Virus record (IMG/VR): IMGVR_UViG_2703718815_000003
Length of the DNA stretch: 64,000 bases
Source: a virus
Lineage: Duplodnaviria > Heunggongvirae > Uroviricota > Caudoviricetes
Direction: 5' to 3' (one strand)
The position numbers were made by a program, and so were the translations under genes. Of the stretch, positions 8,266-59,112 are shown in pieces. Numbering within the stretch: the first letter of the stretch is position 1; the number at the start of each line of letters is the position of its first letter. The notes beneath the pieces are model-generated. The model worked only from the letters and a program-made list of their open reading frames with translations. It had not been told where the DNA came from and searched no databases.

Positions 8266-11200
8266 TTAGTTACGTTGAGTGTTTGGGTTGAGTGATCCGC
8301 CAGGGCGTTTCTCTTGAGCGATAGTCTCAAGCGCGATTGCTTTCATCCGTTGAGCGGCATTGTTCCATATGCTTTCTGTATCGCCGGATTCAGTTGTGCT
8401 ACCGTCACTATGGACGTTGATCTCAATTGATACCGGAGAAAGAACATTTCCTCCTCCACTCATACCATCGGTACTGAGCGTTACAGGGATTGTTCGACCA
8501 TCAGGCAATGGAACATACGCCTCATTCATATCGCCTTCCCCAAACAACGCCAATTGAGGTGAGTTGGCGATACCGCCTTTCTGGTATGCCCGGAGCGGGA
8601 TCACGCCGTCTTTTCCGAATATGCCACCATTTGCAAAATTCGGAATTGCAGGAATACCATTCGTGCCATCGGCAGCAGAACTGGTCAGATTGTTGAACCC
8701 GGAAGTTGAGCCAGAAGAACCGGACATCAATCCATCGAATCCACCACCAGCCCATACTGAAACCAACCCAGATGCAACTGTCGCGCCGAAATTCAACCAC
8801 TTATTACCAGAGCCGGAAGCATTAGCTCCAAGCATTGCAAACGCGGCAGACAGAGCACCGGTAACAGAGCTGAGGTTCTGCATCGAGAAGATGGAATCCT
8901 TCACTGCTTTTGTCTCAGCATCTTTGGCTTCGGTGCTATCAAATAGCCCTGATACCCAGCTACCAATCGCATTTGTTGCTGTGCCAATTGCGCTGGTGGT
9001 CTGCTGTGTCGTTTGCCCCAATCCAGTTACCGAACTGGACGTCTCCTTCGTGGCTTCTCCTACCGACTTGTCGCCGTTAACAGTGTTGCCCATTCGTACC
9101 CCTTGATTGGCAACGGCGGAAGCAACCCCGGTCAGCAAATTACCACTCTGTGAACTACCAGCTGCGGTGGTTCCCATCCCCAACATGTTCATTAGAGGCA
9201 GCGTGATCTGCGACTTCACGACCATATTGGTGATATCTTTCAAAATGGACTGAGATAGGCTGGAGAAGCTCATCTTCCCGTTAATAACGAAATCAGTCAG
9301 GACATCAGTTAAGCCACTAAACAAATCAGTCCAGGTGCTTTCGATCTGCTCTGCCAGGTTTTCGTATTCCAGTGCCAACTTCTGCGTCGCAGTCCCTGTC
9401 TCTTTAATGAGCGCGGTATTGCCAGCAGCAATAAGTTGATTGATTTTCTTTGTATAAAGCGCCACGACTTTAGGATCAGACGCCTTATCACGAAGTTCTA
9501 TCAACGCTTTGAGATTGCGGTTGTAGGTGTCTTCGAAATCAGCAACTTTCTCTTCGCGAGACGGCGTATAGCCAGCACTAATAATGGAATCCGCCTCCGG
9601 TGCCCAAGTGGAGATCATCTGCTCAACATTGCGGCGATTAAACATCTCGCGATATTCAGGTGTCGCATTTTTGAGGTCTTCAAGACGTTTTTTCGCCTTG
9701 TCGATCATCTCTTGAGTGATGAACTCGTTAGGAACCGCATTAGCCAAATCTGTCAGCGATTTCGTTGTATCGCGAAGAGACTGATCAAACGATACCGTAG
9801 CCTTAGAGCTTTCACCCATTTGCCCCATAAGCTGATCGGCTTTGTCCAGAGCCTTCTGGTATCCGGCTGCCAGTTTCTGTTGCGCTGCCTGTTCCTTCTT
9901 GGCCGCACGCTGCGAGGCGTTAGCTGATCGTTGGGCTGCTTTCTCGGCTGCTGCTGCATCCTGTTCACGAGCTTTAGTCAGTGCGGCAATGGCTGCGGCA
10001 CGCTCTTCATCGCTCATTTTCTCCAGAGAGCTGGCGCTGGATGCTTTCTGCAAATTAAGCTGCGTCTTGAGTTGTTTAGGCCCAATAATCGGCTTACCTT
10101 CGAAGTCCATCATCGGAGTGCCGTCAGGCAAAGTACGTTGATAAGTCGCAGAATCCATCTGGTTTCGCATATATTGCGCCAGCGCCTTCTGAGCTGCTTT
10201 ATCAGTTGTACCTAACCCAAGAACAGTCCCCTGGTTTGACATTACGCCCTTACCAGTTTTGGCCGCGTTATCTCTCTCGAACTCTGCCTGAGTCAGTTCC
10301 TGAGCAACGGTTTCCAAATGCTCCTGATAACCACGAATACTGCCTTGAAGTTTCTGGATCTGCTCGGTATTTCCATCTTTTTTGGCTTTTTCAAGCTGAT
10401 CATTAAGAGTCGCTATTTGCTTCTCGGTCGCATTCTTACGAGAAGAAAGTGAATCAACCAGTTTTTGCGCAGGCTCCAGATAGCTTTTGTTTACCGTTTC
10501 ACGTAACGGTGCCAATAGTTTGTTCTTTTCGTCATCAGAAAGTGAATCGTCATCATTGATTTTTTGGATCTTCTCCAGAGCCTCTTGACGAGCTTTAGCG
10601 AATGTTGCCGCAAAGTCTCTATTCTCTTCCCGTATTTTCTCTATCTGTGATTCTGCCGCATCTTTTGCAAGACGTTTGGCTACAGCAATGTCTCCGCGTT
10701 CAATTGCCCCAGTAGTTTTATCGCGTTTCTTACGAAGGTCATTTAGCTCATTTTCTATACGCTTACGTTCATCCTGATTAATCTTTACTGTAGTTCCGGC
10801 CATACCCGGCCCATAAACCACCTTTTCGCCAGATTTTAACTCTTGTTCCTTTTGCGTGATTTGTTGCTCAAGACGCGCTTTATACTCCGCCATCTGTGCA
10901 CGTTTGGCCGCTGTCATCGCTTCTGGTATTTTCCTAATCTCGTCAACGACCTTTGAAGTTTCGCTGCGGAGCATGGTCATGTACGTGATTAGGCCAGCAA
11001 CAGCTACAGTGGCAACTGTAAATGCTGCCCCTATAGGGTTTGCTGCAATGAACGCCGTTAATCCAGCAAAAGCGCCTTTAAGCCCCGTAATCTCCCCACG
11101 GATGGCGAAAATAAGAGAGGGGATCGGAGCCAGCCCCATACGTGCCGCACGATTGAATCGAGTTACTGCTGTAGCGCCGAGGTTAAATGGAGTCTGTATG

Positions 11201-21390: not shown

Positions 21391-22647
21391 CTACCTAGAG
21401 CCACCAAGAATAACACGGTTTTTGACTGGATACCTACGATGTACTGGATAGCCCAATGCGTCTGCACTATGCTCAATGCCACCTGTCTTATCCATATCTC
21501 GTGTTCCAGGCTTGTAGATGACTTTTTCCAGTGAATCAATCAAATGCTTGCACTTCGGATCGATATACAGCCGGATATCTCCAGATGCGGTCATCAGCAT
21601 TCGGTTAACAGCATTAACACGATCCGCAATTGGCGGGTGCTTTTTCGAATAATCGACACGTAAGAATCCCTTCTCTTTGAATATGTCGACGTCAGACTCC
21701 CCGCGAGCATGTTGGCGATAAGCACCTGCCGGATCTGGAAATACCGTTATCTGTGATTTCCAGCGCCAGAAGCGTCTCTCAAGCTCATCACAAACCTCTG
21801 CCGTGTTAGAGGAAAAGAGCACCAATTCATCAATTGCCCATAGCTCACCATTTGGCTGAGGTTGCAAAATTACTGAAGACATCGGGTCAATGTTGAAGTC
21901 CTGCCCTACCCATATAGGCAACCGAGGGTTGAACTGAAGCGGTTTTACATGCACGTTACGATCGAACGGGTAGTAAACGCGCCCGGACATGTTCTCAAAG
22001 CTCGCCAGGTACTCCTGAGCGAACGATTTGGGGTCCATATCGTTCTTAGCAGCTTCAATTTCCGCCGTAGGTACAAACGGAGAATCGGCAGTTACAAACT
22101 GCCAGCTCTTCCACTGTCCCTTTCTTTGCAGCTCTACGTTCTGGCCTATAGTCCACAGTTTGTGAAATTCCGAGAAGCCTTTTGGCGTACCAATGATCAG
22201 CGCACCGCCGCGTGTCGATGAAAGAGTAGGTCGTAACACCTTGTACCAGGTGTCAGCCTTCATATCCTGAAATTCATCAAGCACTACAAAATGCAACGCT
22301 ACGCCGCGCAGAGTGTCAGGCTTATCAGCACCTTTGAGGGCGATCTCCGAACCGTTCTTCAACACGATTGTCATCGTGGTGTCGTTCTTTTTCCTAACCC
22401 ACTTACGAGGCAGAACTTCCTGTAGATCGTCCCACAAAATCTGGCGAGCCATCTGGTAAGTAGGAGCGACATACCAGACTCTTTGCTTTTTTTCCTTTGC
22501 CGCCGCACGAATAATAGTGGAGATCGACAACCGGGATTTTCCCCAGCGTCGACCAGCACAAACAACTTTAAATCGATGCGGAGACTGGAAGACTTTCATC
22601 TGTCCAGAATGCAGTTGCACAAGACTGAGCGAGGACGGGATTGCCAT
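21391..22647 (-). CDS. terminase large subunit
   Basis: Walker A CAGRRWGKS near N-terminus, Walker B VVLDEFQ, C-terminal nuclease-like region with conserved Asp residues. Confidence 0.85.
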   Translation of the reverse strand: MAIPSSLSLVQLHSGQMKVFQSPHRFKVVCAGRRWGKSRLSISTIIRAAAKEKKQRVWYVAPTYQMARQILWDDLQEVLPRKWVRKKNDTTMTIVLKNGSEIALKGADKPDTLRGVALHFVVLDEFQDMKADTWYKVLRPTLSSTRGGALIIGTPKGFSEFHKLWTIGQNVELQRKGQWKSWQFVTADSPFVPTAEIEAAKNDMDPKSFAQEYLASFENMSGRVYYPFDRNVHVKPLQFNPRLPIWVGQDFNIDPMSSVILQPQPNGELWAIDELVLFSSNTAEVCDELERRFWRWKSQITVFPDPAGAYRQHARGESDVDIFKEKGFLRVDYSKKHPPIADRVNAVNRMLMTASGDIRLYIDPKCKHLIDSLEKVIYKPGTRDMDKTGGIEHSADALGYPVHRRYPVKNRVILGGSR

Positions 22648-23279
22648 TATTCGTCCTCCCCTTCACTTCCATCATCTGTCGCATCAAATTCGCTTAGAGC
22701 TTCTTCTTCCAACGTCTCAAGCAATTCGTCATCGATGATTTCAGGCTCGTCGTCTTCCTGACGTAATTTCGCCACCTGGGAAGGCGTAAGCTCACCAAAT
22801 ACCAGGTTCGGAATTTCTTCCTCGTCATTTTCCGCATGATCCATGCCCAATGCTTTGGACGAAACTTCAAAGCATTTTGCAAGGGTATTACTGGCTCTCT
22901 GTAAGCTCTTGAGAGAATCCTCAATCGCCCCTAAAGGCTTACCCTCACGTTTGGCCGTAGTGACTTCGACCATCACCATCTGCCCCAACGCATACGCCCA
23001 GCCGTCATAACGTGTACGACGTTCTTCTATCTTTTCCGCACGGGCTTTAGCGCGAAGCTCTGCGTCAGATTTAAGAGACTCACGAACCATCTTCCCAACA
23101 GAGTCCGCGCCTTTCTCTAATCCTCGCTTTTTGAAATGTCTGGAGAGTGTTTCACGACGAATGCCGTACTCTTCCTCCAGCTTTGAGAGTGTATATTCGC
23201 CTGACGTCCATTTGGCTTCAGCTTCGGCCCACTCCGCTGGTGTCAGGCGAGTTTTTACCTCGTCTTTTTCGACCGTCAT
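22647..23279 (-). CDS. terminase small subunit (candidate)
   Basis: N-terminal HTH-like LSKLEEEYGIRRETLSRHFKKRG, acidic C-terminus; stop overlaps large-terminase start. Confidence 0.6.
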   Translation of the reverse strand: MTVEKDEVKTRLTPAEWAEAEAKWTSGEYTLSKLEEEYGIRRETLSRHFKKRGLEKGADSVGKMVRESLKSDAELRAKARAEKIEERRTRYDGWAYALGQMVMVEVTTAKREGKPLGAIEDSLKSLQRASNTLAKCFEVSSKALGMDHAENDEEEIPNLVFGELTPSQVAKLRQEDDEPEIIDDELLETLEEEALSEFDATDDGSEGEDE

Positions 23280-23374
23280 AGATCCCTCTAAAACACACAG
23301 AGCGCGTCCATGCGCTCTAAAACAACTTGTTTACTGCATCTGCTAACCAACTTGTTTTCTGGGGTGTTTAATTA

Positions 23375-23473
23375 GGTCTGGGCATGTCTTACTAAGCCTG
23401 CTTCCGTATATATTTAATAAGTTACTTATTATTTATATATACAGAAGCAGGTCTTTAAATAAGCTCCCAGACC
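23375..23473. repeat. about 100-bp imperfect inverted repeat; second copy at 54684-54775
   Basis: Arms ggtctggg...cctgcttccgtatatat around an AT-rich centre. Confidence 0.5.
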
Positions 23474-23475
23474 GA

Positions 23476-23742
23476 TTACATCACCAGTAACTTCGCTTTG
23501 GCTCGACCTAAAGTGGTTAACCCAAGAGTCCGGCGGTGATAGCGATTGTCACTGCGTTGGCGCGTATGCCCTTTCTCCACCAGCCCCTTTTTTATCAGAG
23601 CGCGAATTGAGAACTGGATACTTTGCTTGGTTGTCTTGTACGGCAAAACTTCAAGCAATTCGTCCAGATCAAGTAGATGACCTCGCTCATAACCGAGATT
23701 GAGCGTTTTGATGATGTCCTTTTGTTTGTCGGTTAACGTCAT
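23476..23742 (-). CDS. small basic DNA-binding protein (wHTH/RHH-like, candidate regulator or antitoxin)
   Basis: 88 aa, basic C-terminus; last gene of accessory operon, 10 nt after GNAT stop. Confidence 0.4.
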   Translation of the reverse strand: MTLTDKQKDIIKTLNLGYERGHLLDLDELLEVLPYKTTKQSIQFSIRALIKKGLVEKGHTRQRSDNRYHRRTLGLTTLGRAKAKLLVM

Positions 23743-23751
23743 GGCAAATCC

Positions 23752-24642
23752 TTATGCCGGTAAAGCAATTTCTAACGGTTTATCCAAAGGTTGTTTGTCG
23801 AATGCCAGCAGTGGCAACGTGTCAGGCAGTCGACGGCCAAAGTCAGGGTTTCGGTACACACCATACAACGGAGACGTAAAGCTCAGGTTGTGAATGTCCT
23901 TGAGCAGCTTCACAATGCTGGCCTCGTCCACCAGACTGTCGGCAATGTCCTGAATCGTCGTGCCACGATTCCGCCCAGCTTTTGCCAGGGAACTGTTCTT
24001 GTGGTAGTCCGCCACCAGATCACGCAGTGCACGGCGACGACGAGACTCGCTCATTGCGAACAACTCTTTGACGATCGCCTCGTTATCACCCGGGTCGGAA
24101 CGGAAATGGCGCTGGAATACACGCAGTGCACTTTCATAGCTCTTCGGTCGCTCAGGGCGGATGAACTTAAACCCTGCTTTCATGGCGAAGGGATTGTATT
24201 TGCTCATCGAGGACTGGATCTCAATGATTGGCCGGTCATGCATCCTGCTAACCAGGTTAATCATTCGATAAGAGACGCCTACGCCACGATACTGAGTATC
24301 CACAACTGAGCGACTGATCACCGCAAAGTTGTTATTCACGTACCGACCCCAGTACTGGTTAGCCACGGTGGTATTAGTGGTTGGTTTCAACTTAGGAAAC
24401 ATGCGGTGGCGAGGTGCCAGCAGTAGTTTCGGGTAAGCCATAACCACGACGCCCACCAGACGGTCATCAAGTTCGCAGCGATAGTAAGTTGGCGCGAAAG
24501 GTTTGCCGTCTGTTTTGTAGTGAAGCGACTTAAGAGCGTACCAGTCCTCTACAGTTCCCTTTGTGACAGTCATTCGCTCCAGAAAGTCCAGATGACGCGG
24601 AAACTCTTCAGGGCGGTAGCGTTTAATGATGATGTCCGTCAT
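23752..24642 (-). CDS. GNAT-family acetyltransferase-like protein with N- and C-terminal extensions
   Basis: Motif VVDTQYRGVGVSYRMINLV resembles the GNAT acetyl-CoA motif (Q/R-x-x-G-x-G/A); start overlaps ATPase stop. Confidence 0.5.
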   Translation of the reverse strand: MTDIIIKRYRPEEFPRHLDFLERMTVTKGTVEDWYALKSLHYKTDGKPFAPTYYRCELDDRLVGVVVMAYPKLLLAPRHRMFPKLKPTTNTTVANQYWGRYVNNNFAVISRSVVDTQYRGVGVSYRMINLVSRMHDRPIIEIQSSMSKYNPFAMKAGFKFIRPERPKSYESALRVFQRHFRSDPGDNEAIVKELFAMSESRRRRALRDLVADYHKNSSLAKAGRNRGTTIQDIADSLVDEASIVKLLKDIHNLSFTSPLYGVYRNPDFGRRLPDTLPLLAFDKQPLDKPLEIALPA

Positions 24643-25304
24643 GAATGGACCTCATCATGACTACCATTGTGATATTCCACCTTCACGCGTTCTTTGTAGT
24701 GCTTGGTGATCTGCATATCCGGGCGCAGCGCGTTCTTCAGGTCTTCGTGAGTCGTCGCCACCATTACCGTCGCACCAACCTTTCGAGCGGCACGCTGGAG
24801 GTTAGATGCCACAACCTGAGCGGTTACACGGTCGAGAACAGCGCCGAACTCGTCAGCAGCCCACACTTTAGCGCCTGACTCAATCAGTTTGGCAATCTTG
24901 AGACGATATTTCTGACCGTCTGACATTTCAGAAGGCTTGCGAACAAACAGATATGCATCGTTCAGACCAGCCATAGATAACAACCCAAGCGCATCACTGG
25001 TAGTTTTGCCCAGTTGGTCAATGACGTTAACCTCATTATCGAAGGTAAAATCATCGATGGAGGCCACAGATAGCCCTTCATCCTTCATCTGGTGTTGCAG
25101 CTCGCGCAGCACAACGGATTTGCCGGAACCGGATTGGCCGGTAATGTACACCACATCGCCCTGCTTCACTTCCAGCTCCAGATTGTCGTAAAGCGTCCAC
25201 TCTTTTTCGTCCAGGCCAAGCCCGAACGACTCAGCGATTTCCAACGTGCGCGTGGTTTTATTTACGCGTGTCTGAAACGATACGTTGATGATGTATTTGC
25301 TCAT
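24639..25304 (-). CDS. ABC-type P-loop ATPase (stand-alone nucleotide-binding domain)
   Basis: Walker A GQSGSGKS, signature-like SDGQKYRL, Walker B VWAADEFGAVLD; 221 aa with no transmembrane partner nearby. Confidence 0.6.
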   Translation of the reverse strand: MSKYIINVSFQTRVNKTTRTLEIAESFGLGLDEKEWTLYDNLELEVKQGDVVYITGQSGSGKSVVLRELQHQMKDEGLSVASIDDFTFDNEVNVIDQLGKTTSDALGLLSMAGLNDAYLFVRKPSEMSDGQKYRLKIAKLIESGAKVWAADEFGAVLDRVTAQVVASNLQRAARKVGATVMVATTHEDLKNALRPDMQITKHYKERVKVEYHNGSHDEVHS

Positions 25305-25969
25305 GCAGCCATCTCCCCGGAAGAGATCTTCTCCGCATATGCCACAAATGCGTCTACCCCGCTTTCTCCCGTCATTTCTTCCATGTGGGCAAGCAAATCA
25401 CCAACAACAATGGCAGAGCCAGCAGGGAGCGTTTTAAAGCCCAATACGTCGACAACACGTACTTCTTCCGCTGCAACTTCACGACTGATCTCGGTGTGTT
25501 CATCCTTCTGTCGTTTAGTTTCTTCGCCAAGATCGATAACTAGCGAGTCGGTGTCCATTTCTTCTGTCATGCTGCCAACGAGAACATTCAACTCACGCTC
25601 TTCAAAGCCGAAAACCTCGATATCGTCCAGAACAAGCGACTCAAGCTCTTTCTGTAGCTTAATTGCATCGTAATCAATGCTGGCAAGTCGGTTATCTTCA
25701 AGGCGCTTCGCACGAATCTCGTCATCACTGAGATCATCGCGAACAATAACCGGTACGCGCTCAAGTCCAGCAAAAATTGCAGCCTCACGGCGGCCGTGGC
25801 CAGTAATAATTACGTCGTTCTTATCGACCGTAATTGGCTGGTCAAATCCGCGCTTTTTAATGGCTGCGGCTAGATCTCGGATCTGCTGTTCATCATGCTT
25901 TTTGGCATTCATCTCATAGGGAATAAGATCTGCCGGGTCGCGATATACGATTTCAAACTTTTTGGTCAT
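25301..25969 (-). CDS. ParB/Srx-fold (ParB N-terminal domain) protein 1
   Basis: GHGRREAA matches ParB box II (GERRxRA); start ATG 25967-25969 overlaps upstream stop (TAATG). Confidence 0.7.
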   Translation of the reverse strand: MTKKFEIVYRDPADLIPYEMNAKKHDEQQIRDLAAAIKKRGFDQPITVDKNDVIITGHGRREAAIFAGLERVPVIVRDDLSDDEIRAKRLEDNRLASIDYDAIKLQKELESLVLDDIEVFGFEERELNVLVGSMTEEMDTDSLVIDLGEETKRQKDEHTEISREVAAEEVRVVDVLGFKTLPAGSAIVVGDLLAHMEEMTGESGVDAFVAYAEKISSGEMAA

Positions 25970-26649
25970 TACATACGCTCCTTGTAGTAGTCGACCAGCC
26001 ACACCAGAGCCTCACCAGCGTTCTCCATTTCATTACCGGTGTTAATAGCCTGCTCTTTGATGATGTTTTTTATGGTTTCTGCAACGCGATCTGACGCATC
26101 GAAAGTTACTTTGAAGCGCATGGTCTGATGTTCCGCCCCCACACGTTCGGTTTTCTCTCGTTTGTCGGTATCGACAGGCTCATCACTACCACGAGACAAC
26201 GCCTCCAGTGCTTCAAGGTCGATTGCCGCCTCTTTTGCTATAACCATCGAGATTTCGTCGTCATACGGGGCGATTTCAGACAGTTGATAGTCAAGTTCTG
26301 ACTGAATTTCTTCAATGAAGCGTTGCAATGCGATTTGGTCGTCTTCACCGTATCGCTCGTTGTCCACCAGTGACATCTGTTTAGCTACGACATCGCTAAT
26401 TTTGCCCACAGAAAGCACTGGAACCGTTGAAATTCCTTGCTCAATAGCGGCACGCCAGCGATGTTCGCCGCCGAGGATTTCAAAAAATCCATCTTCAAGT
26501 TCACGAGCCAAAATTGGCTTAAAAAAGCCCAATTTTTCGATAGAACCTTTCAGTTTTTCAAAATTCTGCGCACCAACCGAATTGGTGTTCCAGGTATTCG
26601 GGCGAAGGTTGGCAACATCAACCTGCAAAATCGTGATTTTTACATCCAT
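25969..26649 (-). CDS. ParB/Srx-fold (ParB N-terminal domain) protein 2
   Basis: LGGEHRWRAA matches ParB box II; first ATG at 26647-26649 (track start is GTG). Confidence 0.7.
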   Translation of the reverse strand: MDVKITILQVDVANLRPNTWNTNSVGAQNFEKLKGSIEKLGFFKPILARELEDGFFEILGGEHRWRAAIEQGISTVPVLSVGKISDVVAKQMSLVDNERYGEDDQIALQRFIEEIQSELDYQLSEIAPYDDEISMVIAKEAAIDLEALEALSRGSDEPVDTDKREKTERVGAEHQTMRFKVTFDASDRVAETIKNIIKEQAINTGNEMENAGEALVWLVDYYKERM

Positions 26650-26666
26650 TTTATTGCTACAATCCA

Positions 26667-26694
26667 CTAAGTAATCACTTACTTACTATAATAG
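26667..26694. promoter_or_regulatory. palindromic TAAGTA...TACTTA motif in divergent promoter region
   Basis: ctaagtaatcacttacttactataatag between the divergent ParB operon and helicase gene. Confidence 0.4.
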
Positions 26695-26731
26695 CCAAAT
26701 AACATACAAAAGGCACTAAGGAAAGAGGTTT

Positions 26732-28291
26732 ATGACTGTTCGGATTGTATCTAACGCAGTTAATGCGCTTATTTCTGGCGCAGATGACAAGGTAAAGCAA
26801 CTGGTGCAACAGATGTTGAGCTACGAAGTCGAGACTGGCGACTGGAAGGGCACAAGCACAATGTTCAACTGGAGTAAAAACTCGTTCCCTGCAGGCTTTG
26901 CCAAGCCTGTAGCGGCGAACTTGAACAAGGCGGGCATCAAATGTGTTCATATCCGCAAAGACAAAGCCCCGGCGCTTGGAAAACCAAATCCGGCGGTTAA
27001 CCCATTCCCATACAATCCTGATTATGCGTATCAGGATCAGACTGTGGAAACACTGGTTCGAGAGGGAATGATGATTGCGCAGATCGCTACTGGTGGCGGG
27101 AAATCTAATGTTGCCTGCAAAGCAGCTGCACGTATCGGTCGAATGACATTATTTTTAACAACCCGCTCTGTTCTGATGTTTCAAATGGCCGAAAACTTCC
27201 AGAGATCCATCGACTACCGCGCCAAAAATGGCGAACCGTGGTTAAAAGACCAAAAGGTTGGAGTCATTGGCTCGGGTGAGTTCCAGGTATCACGACATAT
27301 CAACGTCGCTACAGTTCAAACTCTTGCAAGTTTCCTTGAAGAACCACCACGCGATGCAACACCAGATAAAAAGAGCTACCACCTCAAACGTCGGGAGCTA
27401 GTGAAACGCTTCCTTTCAAGTGTGTCTCTGCTTATTCTGGAAGAAGCGCATGAGTCTTCAGGCTCTAATTTCTATGACATTGCCAGATTATGTGTGAACG
27501 CAGACTATCGTCTGGCGCTTACGGCCACGCCGTTCATGAAGGATTCTACAGAAGCCAACATGCGTCTGATGGCTGTGGCCGGTCGAATTGAAATTAAAGT
27601 CACAGAAAAGTACCTGATTGATCGAGGCATTCTGGCAAAACCGTACTTCCTTTATCATAAAGTTGCTTACAAGCCAGACGAGGTCAGAATCAAGGCGGAA
27701 CTTGCCAACAAACACCTTAATTTTAGAGTAGGTATGAGCACAGCCTACCAAAAGGCTTATCAGTTGGGGATCGTGTATAATTTGGGACGTAATGAGGCCA
27801 TTGTTCGCGAAGCATTGCTCTATAAGCAACATTCTCTCAATTGTATGACTCTGGTTCGTCTTAAACGCCACGGGCAAATCCTGATGGAAATGATGAAAGA
27901 GTCCGGCCTTAGAGTTGACTTCATTTATGGGGAATCGAACCAGTCGACAAGGCAAGCAAAGCTGAACAGTTTAGCGTCTGGTGAAATAGATGTTTTAATA
28001 GGCTCGACTATTCTGGATGTTGGTGTTGATGTGCCAAGCGTTGGTGCGGTCATTCTTGCTGGTGGTGGGAAAGCAGAAGTTGAAATGAGACAGCGTGTCG
28101 GTCGTGGCTTACGAGCCAAGAAGAATCAGGCAAACGTGTGTTTTATCACTGATTTCATTGACATTAGCAACAAATACCTGTTGTCTCACTCTTATGAGCG
28201 AAAACACATCATCGACACCACACCTGGCTTTGCAGAAGGTGTATTGCCTATTGATGGCGCATTCGATTTTGGAGTTCTGAAACGAGATTAG
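26732..28291 (+). CDS. SF2 DEAD/DEAH-box helicase
   Basis: Walker A ATGGGKS, DEAH-like LILEEAHE, motif III TATP, motif VI-like QRVGRGLR; AGGAAAGAGG upstream. Confidence 0.8.
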   Translation: MTVRIVSNAVNALISGADDKVKQLVQQMLSYEVETGDWKGTSTMFNWSKNSFPAGFAKPVAANLNKAGIKCVHIRKDKAPALGKPNPAVNPFPYNPDYAYQDQTVETLVREGMMIAQIATGGGKSNVACKAAARIGRMTLFLTTRSVLMFQMAENFQRSIDYRAKNGEPWLKDQKVGVIGSGEFQVSRHINVATVQTLASFLEEPPRDATPDKKSYHLKRRELVKRFLSSVSLLILEEAHESSGSNFYDIARLCVNADYRLALTATPFMKDSTEANMRLMAVAGRIEIKVTEKYLIDRGILAKPYFLYHKVAYKPDEVRIKAELANKHLNFRVGMSTAYQKAYQLGIVYNLGRNEAIVREALLYKQHSLNCMTLVRLKRHGQILMEMMKESGLRVDFIYGESNQSTRQAKLNSLASGEIDVLIGSTILDVGVDVPSVGAVILAGGGKAEVEMRQRVGRGLRAKKNQANVCFITDFIDISNKYLLSHSYERKHIIDTTPGFAEGVLPIDGAFDFGVLKRD

Positions 28292-28293
28292 TT

Positions 28294-28572
28294 ATGAGCG
28301 AAAAGAAAACAACTTATTGCCAAGTGGCATTGTCTGATAAGGCCAATGAAAAACTTGGAAAATTTCAAATAAAACTCAAAGAGAAAAAAATCAAGATGTC
28401 TAAAGCTGAAGTTATCAATGCCATTCTGGAGACGATGACTATGGCTGAATTTGACAAAGTCACATCTGCTGTTGGGGTTTCCGCTAAGACGCGTGAGAAA
28501 ATCATGCGCATCTATGAAAACTCCAATATGACAAAAAAAGATTTAGAGGAAATACTGAGCAGGTTGCCGTAA
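28294..28572 (+). CDS. hypothetical small protein
   Basis: 92-aa Lys-rich ORF directly after helicase. Confidence 0.4.
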   Translation: MSEKKTTYCQVALSDKANEKLGKFQIKLKEKKIKMSKAEVINAILETMTMAEFDKVTSAVGVSAKTREKIMRIYENSNMTKKDLEEILSRLP

Positions 28573-28637
28573 CATTTCATATTTACCCCCTATCTACTAA
28601 TTCTATGATGTGCTCACTTGTTAGAAAGGAGCACATC

Positions 28638-29204
28638 ATGAGTTGGTTAAAAGAATTATCATTTGTTGACACCACTGGCGCTAAGAAAAATCATTCTTTC
28701 TGGAAAGTCAGCGATCCTTCTGATTTTCTTGTTGGCGCTAATGCTGCTTTTGAATTGCTTAACTTTTATCAACGTTATCCTGAAATGAAACACAGTCCAC
28801 TCCTGTACAGAATAACAAACGATATGAATAGGTCTGGTTTATTATCAAGTGAGTCAGCGAAAGGCTTTTTTAGCAAAATAACGCCACACATATCATTCGA
28901 TGCTGCAAACGAAATTGATTATCTATCCACGAAACCTCAAGAACAATTGTCTGTACCACCTGAGAAAAAAGAAAGACGAATTGCCAGCATTGAAAATATA
29001 TCGAAAGAGCTTCGCACAACAACGTTGAGGCTGCTGAACTTTCTTACGCTACTAAATTGGATAGATGATCAAACATTGATTCCATCAACCGATGCGTTGG
29101 ATAACAGAGTCCTTAGGCTGAACAAAAAATCGCAATTTGGTTTTGTGTTCACCAAAAAAGGTGAAGATTTAATCAAAAGAAAATATAGATTATTGAATGA
29201 TTAA
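28638..29204 (+). CDS. hypothetical protein (AT-rich cargo)
   Basis: Start set to ATG 28638 with AAAGGAG upstream; low-GC region. Confidence 0.5.
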   Translation: MSWLKELSFVDTTGAKKNHSFWKVSDPSDFLVGANAAFELLNFYQRYPEMKHSPLLYRITNDMNRSGLLSSESAKGFFSKITPHISFDAANEIDYLSTKPQEQLSVPPEKKERRIASIENISKELRTTTLRLLNFLTLLNWIDDQTLIPSTDALDNRVLRLNKKSQFGFVFTKKGEDLIKRKYRLLND

Positions 29205-29210
29205 TAGTCT

Positions 29211-29256
29211 ACATGCAGGTGTATGAGAGCACCTGCATGTGACATTCATCACATTT
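29211..29256 (+). terminator. intrinsic terminator
   Basis: 10-bp stem acatgcaggt/acctgcatgt followed by TTTTTT. Confidence 0.5.
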
Positions 29257-29349
29257 TTTGAAGCACACACCTCCGGCTGAAAAAATTTCTTGATTGGCTG
29301 AACGATATTTGTAGGCTTTTCAATTGATAACTAAGGTCGGATACTGCAG

Positions 29350-29838
29350 ATGAGTATTTCTATAAACAAAATAATTAACTCTTTACGACATAAAATATCA
29401 CATGGAAAAGATGTTCTTTTTAAAGAAAAATATTATCTATTCAACTTAGAGCCGTACAAATGTACAAAATTTTATATCACTCGGAACCGTAAATATTCAG
29501 TTTCAATCACAAAAGACATGAAGAAAATCTCTTCAGAAGAGTACTTCATATCACATATTTATATCTACCCATTTAAATTAGAACCATTAAATATAATTCT
29601 TCCTACAATAAAAGGGGTTGAACTTGAAGGTTATACTTTAAGCTCTAACTTTAATGATATGGGTGTACAAAAACCAGGGACAAGGTCATACTACGCCTAC
29701 AAAGTAAAATGCAATAACTACAACGCACTTAACATGCTAATCAGCAAACTTGAAACGGAGATAGTCGAAGGAAATCTAAATGATGATCATGAAAAATTAG
29801 AACAAATAGAAAAACTTAGAAAGTGTGATGTTAAATAA
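29350..29838 (+). CDS. hypothetical protein (AT-rich cargo)
   Basis: 162-aa ORF in low-GC island. Confidence 0.45.
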   Translation: MSISINKIINSLRHKISHGKDVLFKEKYYLFNLEPYKCTKFYITRNRKYSVSITKDMKKISSEEYFISHIYIYPFKLEPLNIILPTIKGVELEGYTLSSNFNDMGVQKPGTRSYYAYKVKCNNYNALNMLISKLETEIVEGNLNDDHEKLEQIEKLRKCDVK

Positions 29839-30453
29839 TTGGATTATCATGATATGAAAATGAAACTTTCGTTACTCCTTGCTTGTATATACCTCCCGGC
29901 GTTTTCCGCCAACGCATTATCAGATTTCGTCTATGACATGCAAAAAACGTACAGCATGTTTACCTCCGAAGACGTAGTAGAATACAAATCACGAGGTCTG
30001 AATCAGCCAGTTTGGTTCAGATTCTCAGACAACGCAGAAGAAACAATACTTAATGGAGGAAAAGAAAGATTACGGTTGCAAATTAACGGGACCGCTGTAC
30101 CAGAAAACGTTAATGTAAGCTCTGACGAAGCCATGAAGCCATCTGGAATTGTTTTAGAAGTTCAAGACGGCACACTTTACTGTGATGAAATGGCTACAAC
30201 AGGTTGCCAAGTAAACATTAGGGTTGGCAATGAAGAGCCTATCGTTACTTACGCCAAGGCTGAAGGGAATACAAGTGGAAAGGTATTGTTTATCGATGAA
30301 AATATCTCAAAACGTATCGTTCGTGACATACAGAAAACAGCTAACTCTAAATCCGTCGATAAAAAAATCTATGTTGAGGTTCCCTTCTTTGTCGTTGGTA
30401 ACAAAGAATTTAAATTTGGGTTGCTGAAAACACCTCTAAGAGTATCAGAATGA
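29839..30453 (+). CDS. predicted secreted protein
   Basis: N-terminal signal-peptide-like MKMKLSLLLACIYLPAFSANA; exact start uncertain (ATGs at 29839, 29854, 29860). Confidence 0.5.
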   Translation: MDYHDMKMKLSLLLACIYLPAFSANALSDFVYDMQKTYSMFTSEDVVEYKSRGLNQPVWFRFSDNAEETILNGGKERLRLQINGTAVPENVNVSSDEAMKPSGIVLEVQDGTLYCDEMATTGCQVNIRVGNEEPIVTYAKAEGNTSGKVLFIDENISKRIVRDIQKTANSKSVDKKIYVEVPFFVVGNKEFKFGLLKTPLRVSE

Positions 30454-30974
30454 GAACATTGGACATCACCTACGGCATACCGGCTGAAGTCTGGCCGCGA
30501 GACTACGAACATGCTGAGAACATACTTATGTTCTGGCGGAAGAACAACATTCCTGTAAGAGTCACGCTTGAAGACGGTCAGGTGTTTTGCATGTACGTTC
30601 AGGGGACAATGCCTTCACGCAATAAGCTAGATTTATGCCCGATTCCATATGATAAAGAAAATCGTATAAGACTCCCACTTGAGCGCATTAGCACAATTGA
30701 ATCAGGTGTAATCGATGGCATTGCTCGCGAGTTCAAAGGTAGGCTAACAATACATCCAGACTATGTTGACAATCAGCCATCACGCCGTGACTTTTTTGCG
30801 ATATGTCGCAAGGCTTATCAAAACGACCAATCTATAAGGGTCTACATGACAGACGGTCGTGAAATAGAAGGGGTGTCAAGAGGCGTTGATGCTTGCCAGG
30901 TCACTCTTAAGTTAGAAGACGGCAGAAAAATACTTGTTTTCTTCGATTGGGTTGAACGAATCCTTCCATTTTAA
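30450..30974 (+). CDS. hypothetical protein
   Basis: 174-aa ORF overlapping previous stop. Confidence 0.5.
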   Translation: MRTLDITYGIPAEVWPRDYEHAENILMFWRKNNIPVRVTLEDGQVFCMYVQGTMPSRNKLDLCPIPYDKENRIRLPLERISTIESGVIDGIAREFKGRLTIHPDYVDNQPSRRDFFAICRKAYQNDQSIRVYMTDGREIEGVSRGVDACQVTLKLEDGRKILVFFDWVERILPF

Positions 30975-31165
30975 ATCTATAAGGGTAATAACCGGCTAAG
31001 TCCGGTTATTATTTTACATGCCATTCATTTAAAACTCTTTCAATGCCACCCCGTATAAATATATAAGGTTAAAGGCCCGAATTGATTATTTATTTAGGGA
31101 ACACCTTCGACGATCTCGCTTTTATTTCTAGGACTTTCATCCCTGCAGAAAATTTAAAAAAACAC

Positions 31166-31194
31166 TTGCAATCTTTTTTCACGTATTGATAATT
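31166..31194 (+). promoter_or_regulatory. sigma70-like promoter
   Basis: TTGCAA - 17 nt - ATAATT upstream of the 31269 gene. Confidence 0.4.
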
Positions 31195-31268
31195 GAACTC
31201 GTCGAAAGCGAGCTGGCTAACGACAGTAAAAAATAAATTCATTTTAATTTTTCGTAAGGATGTCCATC

Positions 31269-31919
31269 ATGGCTAACATTATCATTTCTAAAAAGTCCAT
31301 CATTGAAGCTGCTGCCATTGTATCCGACGAGCTGCGCGAAAAAGCAGATCTGGCAACTCAAACATATAACGAACATTATAAAAATGGTACGCACACAAAA
31401 GCAGACAAAGCAAATATGCAAGCTGCAACCACCAAACTTGCTTACTTCATCAACAACGTCGTAAACGCAGTAGAAGACGAAAAATTATGCTCTGTTTTCT
31501 ACTATGCGATCAAAGCAAGTAAACAAGCGCCAGAAGTATTTTTCCGTGATGCAATGACTAATAGTTATTCACTGGAAAAACTGGTTTATCTGGTTAAATC
31601 CATTAAAGCTGGTAAATGTGTTTATTCCGTCGCTGATATGTCAGGATCTCGTGTGTTCGCTTTAATCGATATGATTAACGACGAGATCGACACGTTCACC
31701 AATGGCGCTGTTTTCGATTTAATGAATGAAGCTAAAAAAGCGTGCGAAATTAAATTGGACGCTGGCTATACTCAAGCCAACCAGCTTATCAATCTTTGCG
31801 AACGTCTTGGACTTGTTGAGAAAGTCAAAGGAATGGGAAGCGCAAAAGCTGGTACGCAGCAATATCGCTTTATTAAAAATGATTTCTATAACTATCTGGC
31901 TGATGCTTTCAAAGCGTAA
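31269..31919 (+). CDS. hypothetical protein
   Basis: AAGGA 8 nt upstream of ATG 31269; 216 aa. Confidence 0.55.
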   Translation: MANIIISKKSIIEAAAIVSDELREKADLATQTYNEHYKNGTHTKADKANMQAATTKLAYFINNVVNAVEDEKLCSVFYYAIKASKQAPEVFFRDAMTNSYSLEKLVYLVKSIKAGKCVYSVADMSGSRVFALIDMINDEIDTFTNGAVFDLMNEAKKACEIKLDAGYTQANQLINLCERLGLVEKVKGMGSAKAGTQQYRFIKNDFYNYLADAFKA

Positions 31920-31932
31920 TTAATGGAATCTG

Positions 31933-31953
31933 GCGCCCACTATGGGCGCTTTT
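31933..31953 (+). terminator. intrinsic terminator (GCGCCCA cta TGGGCGC + TTTT)
   Basis: Perfect 7-bp GC stem followed by T-run. Confidence 0.6.
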
Positions 31954-31966
31954 AAGGAGCTTAATC

Positions 31967-32197
31967 ATGTTTATTCTTATCGCTGGCGTTAACGTGCGCA
32001 ATGAATATTTTGTTAATCGCATCGCTGGGATCGCTGGTTACGCTGGGCGCGCAGTCGAGCTTATAGATGAAACGACGCGCAAAATTGACTTATTGAGCGA
32101 CCAGGAGCGAAAAAAAGCAGACGTGAATGACGCTGATATATTTTTAATGTTAAAAGCGTTTGTAGAAATGGGATTTGAAATCAGTTTACATAAATAA
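31967..32197 (+). CDS. hypothetical small protein
   Basis: AAGGAG 7 nt upstream; 76 aa; bracketed by two identical terminator hairpins. Confidence 0.5.
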   Translation: MFILIAGVNVRNEYFVNRIAGIAGYAGRAVELIDETTRKIDLLSDQERKKADVNDADIFLMLKAFVEMGFEISLHK

Positions 32198-38677: not shown

Positions 38678-40711
38678 TTACTTAACTTGGTGGCCTGGTT
38701 TAGCACCAGCATCCGGGCTTAACAGGAAGATATCTTTTCCGCCAGGGCCAGCAGCCATCACCATGCCTTCGGAGATACCGAAGCGCATTTTACGCGGTGC
38801 CAGGTTAGCCACCATAATGGTGTGACGACCAATCAGTGCCTGTGGGTCTGGATAAGCAGAACGGATGCCTGAGAAGACATTGCGTTTTTCACCGCCGAGA
38901 TCCAGCGTCAGGCGCAGCAGTTTGTCAGAACCTTCAACAAACTCTGCGTTTTCGATCAGTGCCACGCGCAGGTCAACTTTGGCAAAGTCGTCAAAGGTGA
39001 TGGTTTCCTGAATCGGGTCGTCTGCCAGCGGGCCAGTAACTGGCGCGGCAGCTGCTTTCACTTCTTCTTTGGATGCTTCCACCAGTGCTTCAACCTGCTT
39101 CATATCGATGCGGTTATACAGTGCCTTGAACGGATTCACTTTATGGCCCAGCAGCGGTTGCTGGATACCATCCCAGGTCAGTTCTGTATTCAGGAATGCT
39201 TCTGCACGTTCAGTCAGTTTCGGCAGTACCGGCTTCAGGTACGTCATCAGCACGCGGAACAGGTTAATGCCCATAGAGCAAATCGCCTGCAGATCGGCAT
39301 CGCGTCCTTCCTGCTTCGCCACCACCCACGGAGCCTGTTCATCGACATAGCGGTTAGCCAGGTCAGCCAATGCCATGATTTCACGGATAGCTTTACCAAA
39401 TTCACGGCTTTCCCATGCTTCGCCAATCACTTCAGCGGCATCAGTAAAGGTTTTGTACAGTTGCGGGTCAGCCAGTTCGCTTGCCAGCACGCCGTCAAAA
39501 CGCTTGTTGATAAAGCCTGCATTACGGGAGGCCAGGTTAACCACTTTGTTCACGATATCGGCATTCACGCGCTGAACGAAATCCTCCAGGTTGAGATCGA
39601 TATCATCAATGCGCGAAGAGAGTTTCGCAGTGTAGTAGTAACGCAGGCTGTCAGCGTCAAAATGATTCAGCCAGGTGCTGGCTTTAATAAAGGTGCCGCG
39701 AGACTTGGACATCTTCGCGCCGTTCACCGTCACATAGCCGTGAACAAACAGGTTGGTCGGCTTGCGGAAGTTGCTGCCTTCCAGCATGGCAGGCCAGAAC
39801 AGGCTGTGGAAGTAAACAATATCTTTACCGATGAAGTGGTACAGCTCGGCGGTGGAGTCTTTCTTCCAGTATTCATCGAAGCTGGTGGTATCGCCGCGCT
39901 TGTCGCACAGATTCTTGAAGGAACCCATGTAGCCAATCGGCGCGTCCAGCCAGACGTAGAAATATTTGCCCGGCGCGTTCGGAATTTCAAAACCGAAGTA
40001 GGGCGCATCTCGGGAGATATCCCACTGTTGCAGGCCGGATTCAAACCATTCCTGCATTTTGTTCGCCACCTGCTCCTGCAACGCGCCGCTGCGGGTCCAT
40101 GCCTGCAACATTTCGCTGAAAGAAGGCAGATCAAAGAAGAAGTGTTCGGAATCACGCATTACCGGGGTAGCGCCAGAAACCACCGATTTCGGCTCGATCA
40201 ATTCAGTCGGGCTATATGTTGCGCCGCAGACTTCACAGTTATCGCCGTATTGATCTGGCGCTTTACATTTCGGGCAGGTGCCTTTTACAAAACGATCCGG
40301 CAGGAACATGCCTTTTTCCGGGTCGTACAACTGAGAGATAGTGCGGTTTTTAATAAAACCGTTCTCTTTCAGGCGAGTATAGATAAGCTCAGACAACTGA
40401 CGGTTCTCTTCGCTGTGCGTCGAGTGATAGTTGTCATAGCTGATGTTAAAGCCTGCGAAATCAGTCTGGTGTTCCTGACTCATTTCGCCAATCATCTGCT
40501 CCGGTGTGATACCAAGCTGCTGTGCTTTCAGCATGATCGGCGTACCGTGGGCATCGTCGGCACAGATGAAATTAACCTCGTGGCCGCGCATTCGCTGGTA
40601 ACGAACCCAGACATCAGCCTGGATGTGCTCCAGCATATGGCCGAGGTGGATTGAGCCGTTAGCGTACGGCAGCGCGCACGTCACCAGAATTTTCTTCGCG
40701 ACTTGGGTCAT
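38678..40711 (-). CDS. metG: methionyl-tRNA synthetase (host-type MetG)
   Basis: 677 aa from [26 protein letters not shown]; class I motifs SIHLGH and KMSKS, CPKC/CEVC zinc knuckle, C-terminal tRNA-binding domain. Matches enterobacterial MetG as I recall it, not verified by search. Confidence 0.95.
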
Positions 40712-40868
40712 AGTAGGCATTACTTCTTTGTAGTGAAAAGGGGCTTGATAGTAACAAAATGGCCTTATGTCTGCCATGTGATAACAGCATTTCTCATAAA
40801 TGATTAAATGTCGTAGCTGGAGTACACTACAAGGCGACAATTGCGCAAATTAAAATAAAGGAGACGGG

Positions 40869-54787: not shown

Positions 54788-55381
54788 CTAAGCAGCCTTC
54801 TTTGATGGTCTTTTTTTCCTGATCACATTCGCAGGATCATACCCTCCCAGACTTTTCATGACGTCCAAAGGGATCTTGCTTATAGAGTGCCCAGCGTCCT
54901 GACAGAATCCTCGAAAAACAACGAGCATACTGCCACCTGGGTTGATGTTTACTTCTACCTGACCCAGATTGACGTCAGGCTCGACAAACGCTACGCGGCC
55001 ACCAGACAGAATAATCGTCTCATTCGCACACTCTGTTGCACGCTCATACCACTTTGTATCTAGGGATTGAGGAATTAGCATCACTGTTGTAACTCCGCGA
55101 GCCTGCTCACGTATAGCCGCATCAATCCAGGGGGAGATTTTGGAGTAGGGTGGATTGAGGAAGGCAATTGTACCTGGCTGTCCCCATTCAGATTTCAAAG
55201 CATCACGCTCAACGCCTATGAAATTAGGCAGCTTTGCATTGTCCTTGTTGCAGGCAACGTCAACATCAAATGTCACTCCAAGATAACGTTGAATGGCAGA
55301 AAACAGCCAGTCAGGTGTTCTCCAGAGGTCACGAAGAGAGTTGTCGCGCTTTCGCTGTTTGATTTTTTCGGCTGCAATCAT
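54788..55381 (-). CDS. phage-type N6-adenine DNA methyltransferase (Dam-like)
   Basis: WRTPDWLF N-terminus and FLNPPYS catalytic motif. Confidence 0.8.
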   Translation of the reverse strand: MIAAEKIKQRKRDNSLRDLWRTPDWLFSAIQRYLGVTFDVDVACNKDNAKLPNFIGVERDALKSEWGQPGTIAFLNPPYSKISPWIDAAIREQARGVTTVMLIPQSLDTKWYERATECANETIILSGGRVAFVEPDVNLGQVEVNINPGGSMLVVFRGFCQDAGHSISKIPLDVMKSLGGYDPANVIRKKRPSKKAA

Positions 55382-57090: not shown

Positions 57091-57099
57091 CAGAACTCC

Positions 57100-57519: not shown

Positions 57520-57580
57520 TTTTTATCCTTAACCCATTTTGAGAGTTTTATTGTCGCAATGTCGAAGAGGCGAACAATTT

Positions 57581-59111: not shown

Positions 59112-59112
59112 A

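Follow-up and report, generated by a model that had tools for sequence, protein, structure and literature searches.

We analyzed a 64,000-nucleotide stretch of viral DNA (IMG/VR record IMGVR_UViG_2703718815_000003; the whole stretch is called the window here), which belongs to an SSU5-like phage-plasmid of Escherichia coli, and focused on an operon of five genes that runs on the minus strand from position 26649 to 23476. In order of transcription, these genes encode two ParB-like proteins (ParB1 and ParB2), a soluble ABC-type ATPase, a 296-amino-acid (aa) GNAT-fold protein, and an 88-aa winged-helix protein. The genes are closely stitched together. Specifically, ParB1 and ParB2 meet at a TAATG junction, the ABC gene has an ATGA overlap at each end, and the TAA of the GNAT gene is followed by nine nucleotides and then the ATG of the 88-aa gene. 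On the 3′ side, a 196-bp gap separates the operon from a TerS-like gene, TerL, and the portal gene. On the other side, the operon diverges from a helicase gene, with which it shares an intergenic region of 82 bp when counted to the ATG of ParB1. We found that the operon is a lytic-cycle core module of the SSU5/nickie/RHEph10 clade, a group of ~100-120 kb siphoviruses and phage-plasmids. The genes are as follows:

26732-28291, plus strand: divergent SF2 helicase (UvsW/XPB-like, DExH; Pfam ResIII, DEAD, and Helicase_C)
25969-26649, minus strand: ParB-like protein 1, 226 aa (ATG at 26649; alternative GTG start at 26667)
25301-25969, minus strand: ParB-like protein 2, 222 aa (start overlaps the ParB1 stop)
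24639-25304, minus strand: soluble ABC-type ATPase, 221 aa (Pfam ABC_tran)
23752-24642, minus strand: putative GNAT-fold acyl-CoA transferase, 296 aa, isoelectric point (pI) 9.8
23476-23742, minus strand: basic winged-helix (MarR/Lrs14-like) protein, 88 aa (phrog_900, 1.9e-45)
22647-23279, minus strand: TerS-like gene (phrog_867, 2.2e-100)
21391-22647, minus strand: TerL (Pfam Terminase_6N/6C; phrog_2 and phrog_10250)

A preliminary description of this DNA had proposed a coupled five-gene operon between the terminase and a divergent helicase, and the junctions, together with the Pfam and PHROG calls, confirmed that arrangement. The spacer before the 88-aa gene, which had been given as 10 nucleotides, is 9. 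The five domain calls made there (two ParB-like proteins, an ABC ATPase, a GNAT enzyme, and a small DNA-binding protein) all held up in profile and fold searches, and the two genes at 21391-23279 are labeled as the small and large terminase subunits in the annotation of phage Cyrano. To that description, our analysis adds a known phage-plasmid family, a conserved core position beside the packaging genes, and the recognition of a split enzyme of the COG2401 type.

Over 4.9 kb, the region is 98.8% identical to phage Cyrano, known in strain LF82 as plasmid pLF82, and its identity to Salmonella phage SSU5 is 83%. The region was also matched in 793 plasmid records, chiefly from Klebsiella, Escherichia, Enterobacter, Yersinia, and Salmonella. 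We take the SSU5-type family to include pMT1 and pHCM2. Related phages of Pseudomonas, Rhizobium, Stenotrophomonas, and Xanthomonas carry the operon as well. In a collection of 50,697 deposited phage records, the GNAT gene was present in 31, and these were precisely the 31 records whose TerL shows 53% identity or more; none of the GNAT matches came from the 109 TerL relatives farther away (45.5% identical or less, with genomes of 30-60 kb). The module is therefore a strict core of the ~100-120 kb clade. In a scan of genomes at the species level, the GNAT gene was found in 26 gamma- and alphaproteobacterial species, with many of the matches on contigs of 96-118 kb, including a 108-kb contig of Yersinia pestis that carries the module at 99% identity. 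An initial scan of viral sequences with the GNAT alignment returned close relatives only, with GNAT proteins 80-100% identical.

Gene order is as well conserved as gene content. Throughout the clade, a divergent helicase is followed by ParB, ParB, ABC, zero to three inserted genes, GNAT, the winged-helix gene, the gap, TerS, TerL, and the portal; the divergent helicase was seen at all clade loci examined, and the 88-aa gene, directly 3′ of GNAT, at all 24 clade loci scanned. Checking for co-occurrence of this order in other genomes, we found it kept down to ~40% identity. It persists at ~40-45% protein identity in an Ectothiorhodospira genome, in a prophage within a 3.3-Mb contig, and in about 20 viral contigs, and it recurs in the cultured phages Rhizobium RHph_Y2_11 and Pseudomonas nickie, so that elements of gamma- and alphaproteobacteria share it. 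Four relatives (L003, L005, L167, and L197) have extra small genes between ParB2, ABC, and GNAT; the inserted genes include Phage_gp49_66, RyR-domain, and DUF2829 members and, in Klebsiella phage pJN2-26, a 183-aa gene, and up to three of them separate ABC from GNAT. Because such genes interrupt the operons of relatives, tight translational coupling is not universal, though the gene order is. The operon is under strong purifying selection. In a comparison with pJN2-26, synonymous sites were near saturation, while nonsynonymous divergence (dN) was only 0.02-0.13, and the GNAT gene (dN = 0.022) was under tighter constraint than TerL (dN = 0.032).

The translated ABC protein contains a Walker A motif (GQSGSGKS), a signature motif (MSDGQ), a Walker B motif (VWAADE), and an H-loop (TTHED), and it matched Pfam ABC_tran with an E value of 6.4e-13 (49.9 bits against a cutoff of 25). 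Its PDB matches are ABC nucleotide-binding domains with a transporter-type resemblance, and NCBIfam returned a match to the ABC-F type (6e-12). No membrane or permease partner was found among the Pfam, PHROG, and NCBIfam matches of the operon proteins or their neighbors at any locus examined; the partner of the ABC gene is the GNAT protein, not a transporter component. This 296-aa protein is made up of a GNAT core (approximately residues 20-165) and a conserved helical C-terminal domain of ~130 aa (approximately residues 169-296). At the sequence level its match to the Pfam GNAT family is weak (E = 0.037), and at the level of structure it has the GNAT fold. Within acyl-CoA pyrophosphate-binding motif A (R/Q-x-x-G-x-G/A), R119 and G122 are invariant among 35 sequences, as is motif B. 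When folds were compared, the best match among viral proteins was Mom (E = 3.5e-5), and among PDB entries TmcA ranked 5th, Mom 8th, and NAT10 13th. Ribosomal-protein and N-terminal acetyltransferases and the tRNA-acetylating toxin TacT3 are also among the top matches.

A profile built from the GNAT alignment was searched against 1.8 billion representative proteins and returned 913 relatives. Many of the top-scoring distant relatives are 450-500 aa long and match the profile in their C-terminal half, and their N-terminal halves are ABC ATPases closely resembling the ABC protein of the window. The fused open reading frames (ORFs) matched both the ABC and the GNAT query in jackhmmer searches (1e-60 to 1e-100). 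In 16 fusions, no variation was seen in the Walker A, signature, Walker B, or GNAT motifs; R320 and G323 there are the equivalents of R119 and G122. Since the acyl-CoA-binding motifs are invariant across split and fused forms, acyl-transfer chemistry is implied. Judged by these sequence relationships, the ABC and GNAT genes are the split form of a virus-borne ABC ATPase-acetyltransferase fusion of the COG2401 (MK0520-like) type. Both halves are homologous to the fusion, the gene order from ABC to GNAT is the order of its domains, and the shared residues comprise Walker A, the signature, and Walker B as well as the HY, RxxGxG, E, and C-terminal Y..NP motifs of the GNAT half. COG2401 proteins are single polypeptides, whereas here the enzyme is divided between two genes coupled by an ATGA overlap and shares its operon with two ParB-like genes and a winged-helix gene. 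In the records of Cyrano, of Klebsiella phages, and of JGI, the 296-aa protein bears the label [quoted passage not shown]

Both ParB-like proteins have the ParB/Srx fold, with Pfam ParB_N scores of 49.9 bits for ParB1 (3.3e-13) and 34.8 bits for ParB2 (1.7e-8) against a gathering cutoff of 26.3. They are paralogs of each other (33% identity, E = 8e-10). ParB1 (phrog_723, 2.8e-79) combines a ParB/Srx N-domain containing GGEHRWRAA and DNERYGEDD with an acidic linker and a conserved C-terminal MRFKV...NAGxAL; across 19 orthologs, G61, H63, D96, and N97 are invariant and R64 is retained in 17. ParB2 (phrog_930, 3e-112) has an acidic C-terminal half and an N-domain of the GHGRR type that is common among phage ParB-methyltransferase fusions, and it also matched the N-terminal part of phrog_498, a “DNA methyltransferase” group (5e-32). 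Its invariant residues, across 18 orthologs, are G57-H58-G59-R60, R89, and N93. Relatives of the ParB2 N-domain in the phage collection are often annotated methylase fusions and are often the first or last gene of their record, beside terminase. The phosphate-binding GxxR motif of box II is conserved in both proteins, and on that basis both are predicted to bind nucleoside triphosphates (NTPs). Many database records call the pair partition proteins. However, their TIGR00180 scores (43.3 and 42.6 bits) fall below the cutoff of 58.45, which sets them apart from the canonical ParB organization, and a regular-expression search for the ParA-binding motif [LFI]G[KR]G[LFI], as defined in PMC12704722, found none in ParB1 or ParB2.

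The 88-aa protein is basic (pI 10.2), and its profile matched MarR/PadR/Lrs14 winged-helix regulators in the PDB (best E = 0.001); NCBIfam matches to Sta1/Lrs14 (0.0025-0.004) were under the cutoff. Two features occupy the gap between its gene and terS:

23397-23451 (55 bp), minus strand: AT-rich imperfect palindrome with GC-rich outer arms (CCTGCTTC...GGAAGCAGG), right behind the last stop codon of the operon
23288-23356, minus strand: putative control region before terS, with two direct AACAAGTTG repeats, a GC hairpin, and TGTGTTTT

The palindrome is terminator-like, with a T-run behind it in relatives. Its outer arms are kept in relatives whose GNAT proteins are 90-97% identical and partly kept in the 80% group, and both ends of the SSU5 and Cyrano records fall within the palindrome (23414/23415). 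In the putative control region, the AACAAGTTG repeats lie at 23356-23348 and 23331-23323, 25 bp apart. They are followed by the GC hairpin (23319-23298), which a scan matched as terminator-like, and then by the T-run TGTGTTTT, ~20 nucleotides before the terS ATG and just before its ribosome-binding site. Repeats and hairpin are partly conserved in relatives. Overall, the gap (23280-23475) could hold a terminator plus a late promoter or antitermination site, or a packaging site.

We then turned to normalized read counts from published transcriptomes of the LF82 lysogen (PMC9928086, S1 Table), in which the element is a low-copy plasmid at 5.5 copies per cell. The five operon genes (CYRAN_119-123) had 5.0, 9.5, 9.2, 8.0, and 7.8 reads, compared with a Cyrano background median of 9.8. 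TerS, TerL, the portal, and the major capsid protein gave similar values (7.1, 8.4, 9.8, and 7.4). Thus, the operon, like the structural and late genes, stays silent while the element is a plasmid, and its background-level expression in the lysogen places its function in the lytic cycle. Meanwhile, two other cassettes of the element were expressed: ParA (CYRAN_28) had 49.8 reads and its neighbor 89, and the KacT toxin and its antitoxin had 344 and 592. In pLF82 (NC_011917.1, 31385-33529, outside the window and ~30 kb from the operon), these correspond to a ParA/MinD-type ATPase with a 117-aa gene and to a DUF1778 gene with a 173-aa GNAT (KacT type). With these cassettes expressed and the operon silent, roles in partition, as a toxin-antitoxin pair, or in defense of the lysogen are disfavored. 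The divergent helicase (CYRAN_118) had 46 reads, and the gene behind it (CYRAN_117) had 114, so the divergent promoter region is active on the helicase side and silent on the ParB side. CYRAN_117 corresponds to a 92-aa gene at 28294-28572 (plus strand) of the window that matches phrog_1466 and has no known domain; few Cyrano genes are expressed more strongly in the lysogen.

The fused form of the enzyme was found at 48 viral loci, 45 of which have at least 2 kb of upstream sequence. TerL lies directly upstream on the same strand at 21 of the 45 (20 of the 35 full-length fusions), in a lineage unrelated to the clade. At four loci (L146, L148, L165, and L166), a shorter fusion is immediately preceded by a single ParB-like gene, and in L146 TerL follows that pair ~1 kb downstream. 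In other genomes, the fusion comes after a tail gene, beside an integrase, beside a ParA-type gene, or downstream of a ribonucleotide reductase or SNF2 helicase gene. A family-B DNA polymerase is fused to the ABC and GNAT domains in P0205 and P0177, and in L104 (5580-9362) the three form a single 1,260-aa ORF; P0154, which is probably archaeal, has a TFIIB repeat at the C terminus of the fusion, and in P0165 the ABC ATPase is interrupted by an intein that has a LAGLIDADG domain. The fused enzyme therefore repeatedly adjoins packaging or replication genes. At 11 loci (L092, L093, L096, L100, L103, L105, L114-L116, L119, and L141), the contig ends 0-300 bp past a fusion gene that follows TerL, which suggests a genome terminus or an assembly-breaking structure at that point. 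In L146, an ORF with a PUA-like ASCH domain (9287-9586) lies two genes past the ParB and ABC-GNAT genes, just before TerL; ASCH domains were found in 2 of 133 neighbors of the fused enzyme (best E = 4.8e-5). An ASCH protein of E. coli hydrolyzes N4-acylcytosines, and the neighbor is thus a weak hint at N4-acyl-cytosine chemistry.

Comparison with known systems revealed partial likenesses. TmcA and NAT10 (Kre33) are ATP-dependent cytidine N4-acetyltransferases of tRNA and rRNA, and they are the known GNATs that need an ATPase to acetylate a nucleic-acid base. Like the enzyme studied here, they pair a GNAT domain with a P-loop ATPase, and their structures (2zpa for TmcA; 9aym and 9j3c for NAT10) were among the top Foldseek matches, with the longest alignments. 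However, the TM-scores were low (0.32-0.34), there was no sequence-level relationship, and their ATPase is of the helicase type, in the same chain on the N-terminal side of the GNAT domain and accompanied by an RNA-binding tail, whereas the ATPase here is of the ABC type. The likeness to Mom of phage Mu, a GNAT-fold DNA adenine methylcarbamoyl transferase with an anti-restriction function, is confined to the fold (12-14% identity, no sequence-family match). The matched Mom chains are ~200 aa long, compared with 296 aa here, and Mom is not known to work with an ATPase or ParB partner. GNAT toxin-antitoxin pairs (TacT/TacA, KacT/KacA, and AtaT/AtaR) share a GNAT fold and a small DNA-binding neighbor with the operon but differ from it in size, gene order, ATPase partner, expression, and core status. 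GNAT toxins of the TacT/KacT type are ~160-180 aa long, are encoded behind an RHH/DUF1778 antitoxin gene, and are expressed in the carrier state.

The closest parallels to the ParB-like genes are systems in which a non-partition ParB/Srx protein accompanies a DNA-modifying enzyme, often beside terminase. DpdB, a member of the ParB superfamily (PMC5699537), is an ATPase that DpdA needs to insert preQ0 into DNA (PMC10164549). Clade E phage T-dioxygenases are active only when a ParB-like protein is coexpressed, and ParB (27%) and terminase (19%) are among the commonest domains at T-dioxygenase loci (bioRxiv 10.1101/2025.08.14.668559). In phages, ParB-methyltransferase fusions are frequent, and a ParB-acetyltransferase fusion binds GTP (PMC12704722). 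Compared with these systems, the operon has two ParB paralogs rather than one, and its enzyme is an ATPase-coupled GNAT, which is described in none of them. With ParABS it shares the ParB_N fold and motifs like those of boxes II and III; unlike ParABS, it comes without a ParA gene, a ParA-binding motif, a detected helix-turn-helix (HTH), or an identified parS, and it stays silent while the element is a plasmid. The nearly identical pLF82 has its ParA-type gene in the distant cassette described above.

Scans of all genes with NCBIfam, Pfam, and PADLOC gave no system-level match, in keeping with the earlier impression that the gene set belongs to no named system. Our literature searches (by COG name, SSU5 with ParB, and ParB with acetyltransferase and ABC) found no paper on the operon and no tested function for any COG2401-type family member. 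The genes are already annotated in hundreds of records, though by domain names only. What is new, within the known pairing of a ParB-fold partner with a nucleic-acid-modifying enzyme, is the ABC-ATPase/GNAT enzyme, the pair of ParB paralogs, and the clade-wide lock to the terminase.

The reading that we favor, at a probability of about 35%, is that the operon encodes an acyltransferase of nucleic acids, driven by NTPs and assisted by the ParB proteins, which marks phage DNA ahead of packaging. It is favored because Mom, TmcA, and NAT10 lie near the top of the fold ranks and because ParB-fold proteins are partners of DNA-modifying enzymes. We also count in its favor the DNA-linked contexts of the fusion, namely, TerL adjacency, the family-B polymerase, the TFIIB repeat, and the upstream ParB-like gene. 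The fixed core position of the module, the split-enzyme relationship of ABC and GNAT, the basic character of the GNAT protein (pI 9.8), and the lytic timing count toward it as well. By analogy with TmcA and NAT10, an ABC dimer would use ATP binding and hydrolysis to capture the substrate and position a base at the active site of the GNAT, and the GNAT would move an acyl group from acyl-CoA onto that base, as Mom does on DNA adenine. The two ParB/Srx-fold proteins, in which no HTH was detected, would act as NTP-dependent partners or activators comparable to the ParB-like partners of DpdA and the T-dioxygenases, and the 88-aa winged-helix protein may supply DNA binding or regulation. The substrate would most likely be the phage's own replicated DNA just before packaging, and the outcome would be a covalent mark on virion DNA that shields it from host nucleases. 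In this scheme, we infer the DNA substrate, the acylation of bases, the role of the ParB proteins, and the biological payoff. A sharper version, which is tentative and on balance doubtful, holds that the chemistry is an undescribed ATP-dependent base N-acylation (e.g., to N4-acetylcytosine or N6-acyl-adenine), carried out by a two-subunit ABC/GNAT enzyme on concatemeric DNA before headful packaging and gated by two ParB-fold switches. Of the three roles suggested in the preliminary description, DNA modification or anti-restriction is thus the best supported, and its standing is that of an inferred function.

Several observations weigh against a DNA-marking enzyme. Agmatine/polyamine and protein N-acetyltransferases scored equally well or better in the fold searches, and the GNAT fold therefore leaves the substrate unfixed. 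Both ParB proteins are acidic (pI ~4.5; 4.55 for ParB1), and no HTH family appeared among their Pfam matches. The secondary-structure pattern of the ParB C termini fits a ribbon-helix-helix DNA-binding domain, yet hhalign of the two C-terminal profiles gave a probability of 0.6%, and PDB profile searches returned chance-level matches only, leaving that idea unsupported. A structure model of ParB1, built from a shallow alignment of relatives 85-99% identical, was unusable (predicted local distance difference test score, 35.8). Outside the clade, 24 of the 45 fusion loci do not adjoin TerL, and a ParB neighbor was detected at none of the 35 full-length fusion loci, so neither gene is an obligatory partner; a Pfam scan of the 133 neighboring ORFs, from which TerL ORFs were left out, revealed heterogeneous neighbors, none of them dominant. 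One modification function is already present on the element in the form of a Dam methylase. Finally, an unusual base in the DNA of clade members is conjecture.

The constant company of the terminase genes would also suit an accessory of packaging or maturation that modifies nothing covalently, aiding terminase on concatemers or controlling the switch to the late operon from terS. The module is locked to TerS and TerL throughout the clade, and the fusion sits right behind TerL at almost half of its loci and, together with a ParB-like gene, ~1 kb upstream of TerL in L146. ParB-like genes are commonly terminal in phage records, beside terminase, and the gap contains conserved hairpins and direct repeats, with the winged-helix gene abutting it. 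We nevertheless regard this role as unlikely. The acyl-CoA-binding motifs are invariant in the split and fused forms alike, and we know of no packaging role for acyl-transfer chemistry. About half of the fusions are found away from TerL, near tail genes, integrase, ParA, ribonucleotide reductase, or SNF2 helicase, or fused to the family-B polymerase. Moreover, terminase adjacency is also typical of DNA-modification genes (bioRxiv 10.1101/2025.08.14.668559). To a similar degree, we doubt that the operon encodes a host-takeover or counterdefense enzyme that acetylates a protein, a tRNA or ribosome component, a polyamine, or a signaling nucleotide, with the ABC protein as substrate clamp and the ParB proteins as NTP sensors. 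Such an enzyme would be consistent with expression confined to the lytic state, with the agmatine/polyamine, ribosomal-protein, and N-terminal acetyltransferases and TacT3 among the top fold matches, and with the NCBIfam match at 6e-12, since ribosomes are where soluble ATPases of the ABC-F type act. However, counterdefense genes are usually variable accessory genes, whereas this module is core in 31 of 31 genomes at a fixed position, with a GNAT more constrained than TerL. Its recurring partners are DNA related (ParB, TerL, PolB, and TFIIB), and there was no match to a PADLOC or anti-defense family.

Functions that would serve the plasmid or lysogen are far less probable. The preliminary description had raised an unusual partition module, with two ParB paralogs and an ABC ATPase in the place of ParA. 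That idea fits the partition names in many records and the presence of two ParB_N proteins on an element maintained as a plasmid at low copy number (5.5 per cell; PMC9928086). It is nonetheless very improbable given the operon's expression at 5.0-9.5 reads against a median of 9.8 while ParA has 49.8 and its neighbor 89, the separate ParA/MinD-type ATPase cassette elsewhere on the element, the subthreshold TIGR00180 scores, and the lack of a ParA-binding motif or detectable HTH in the ParB proteins. In addition, the same ATPase-GNAT enzyme occurs with or without a ParB neighbor in small viral contigs of another lineage. The second suggestion, a GNAT toxin neutralized by the small DNA-binding protein, fared worst and is hardly credible: the 296-aa GNAT comes with an ATPase partner and corresponds by homology to one half of a fused enzyme, the 88-aa gene follows the GNAT gene instead of preceding it, and both genes belong to a strict clade core and are silent in a lysogen where the canonical KacT pair, elsewhere on the element, reads 344 and 592. 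We likewise give little credence to a system by which the lysogen would fend off other phages or plasmids. Defense islands often contain ParB-like, ATPase, and helicase genes, and PADLOC 2.0 returned scattered, weak single-domain matches, but none of these was for the GNAT protein, none amounted to a system, and the operon, unexpressed in the lysogen, holds a fixed place in the replication/packaging region of all clade members examined. The probability left over after these readings belongs to something that we have not considered.

The operon occurs in about 800 sequenced plasmids of Klebsiella, Escherichia, Enterobacter, Yersinia, and Salmonella and is conserved like terminase, yet it is annotated merely as “ParB,” “ABC transporter,” or “hypothetical.” It is a strongly conserved and well-defined unknown of medically relevant phage-plasmids. 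If DNA modification is its function, the operon would shape both the host range and the transfer of resistance-bearing phage-plasmids, and it would account for a widespread, uncharacterized enzyme family while adding an ATP-driven DNA acyltransferase as a tool. ATP-dependent base N-acylation, if true, would be the first function for the COG2401 family and would establish ATP-driven DNA acyltransferases as a new class, with members in the phage-plasmids of E. coli, Klebsiella, Salmonella, and Y. pestis. Whatever the substrate, the operon is a testable case of ParB-fold NTP switches paired with an enzyme rather than with segregation, a question raised in PMC12704722.

Elsewhere in the window, positions 54788-63944 form a nucleotide-metabolism block, which also contains ORFs corresponding to NrdB and NrdA of pLF82:

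54788-55381: Dam methylase
57581-58225: P-loop kinase
58225-58701: ORF corresponding to the dihydrofolate reductase (DHFR) of pLF82
58698-59159: HAD/PNKP-like phosphatase
59113-60243: thymidylate-synthase homolog, 376 aa (Pfam match in two stretches, suggesting an insertion)
60387-61454: MazG-like protein

Thymidine hypermodification was considered and set aside. The thymidylate-synthase homolog scores strongly as such and sits beside DHFR and the P-loop kinase in a normal nucleotide-metabolism cluster, and therefore it gives no evidence for 5-hydroxymethyldeoxyuridine chemistry. A TmcA-like role in tRNA modification was also rejected, as the window is without a tRNA gene. Its matches to metG (methionine-tRNA ligase) and apbC/mrp at 38678-41969, which are divergent as in pLF82, look like a captured piece of host chromosome; ApbC, called a “septum site-determining protein” in Cyrano, had 92 reads in the lysogen. 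Downstream of the helicase, the stretch from 28000 to 32000 has a GC content of 0.365-0.40, compared with ~0.47-0.50 elsewhere, and the small ORFs in it have no known domains; the stretch resembles an accessory (moron) region.

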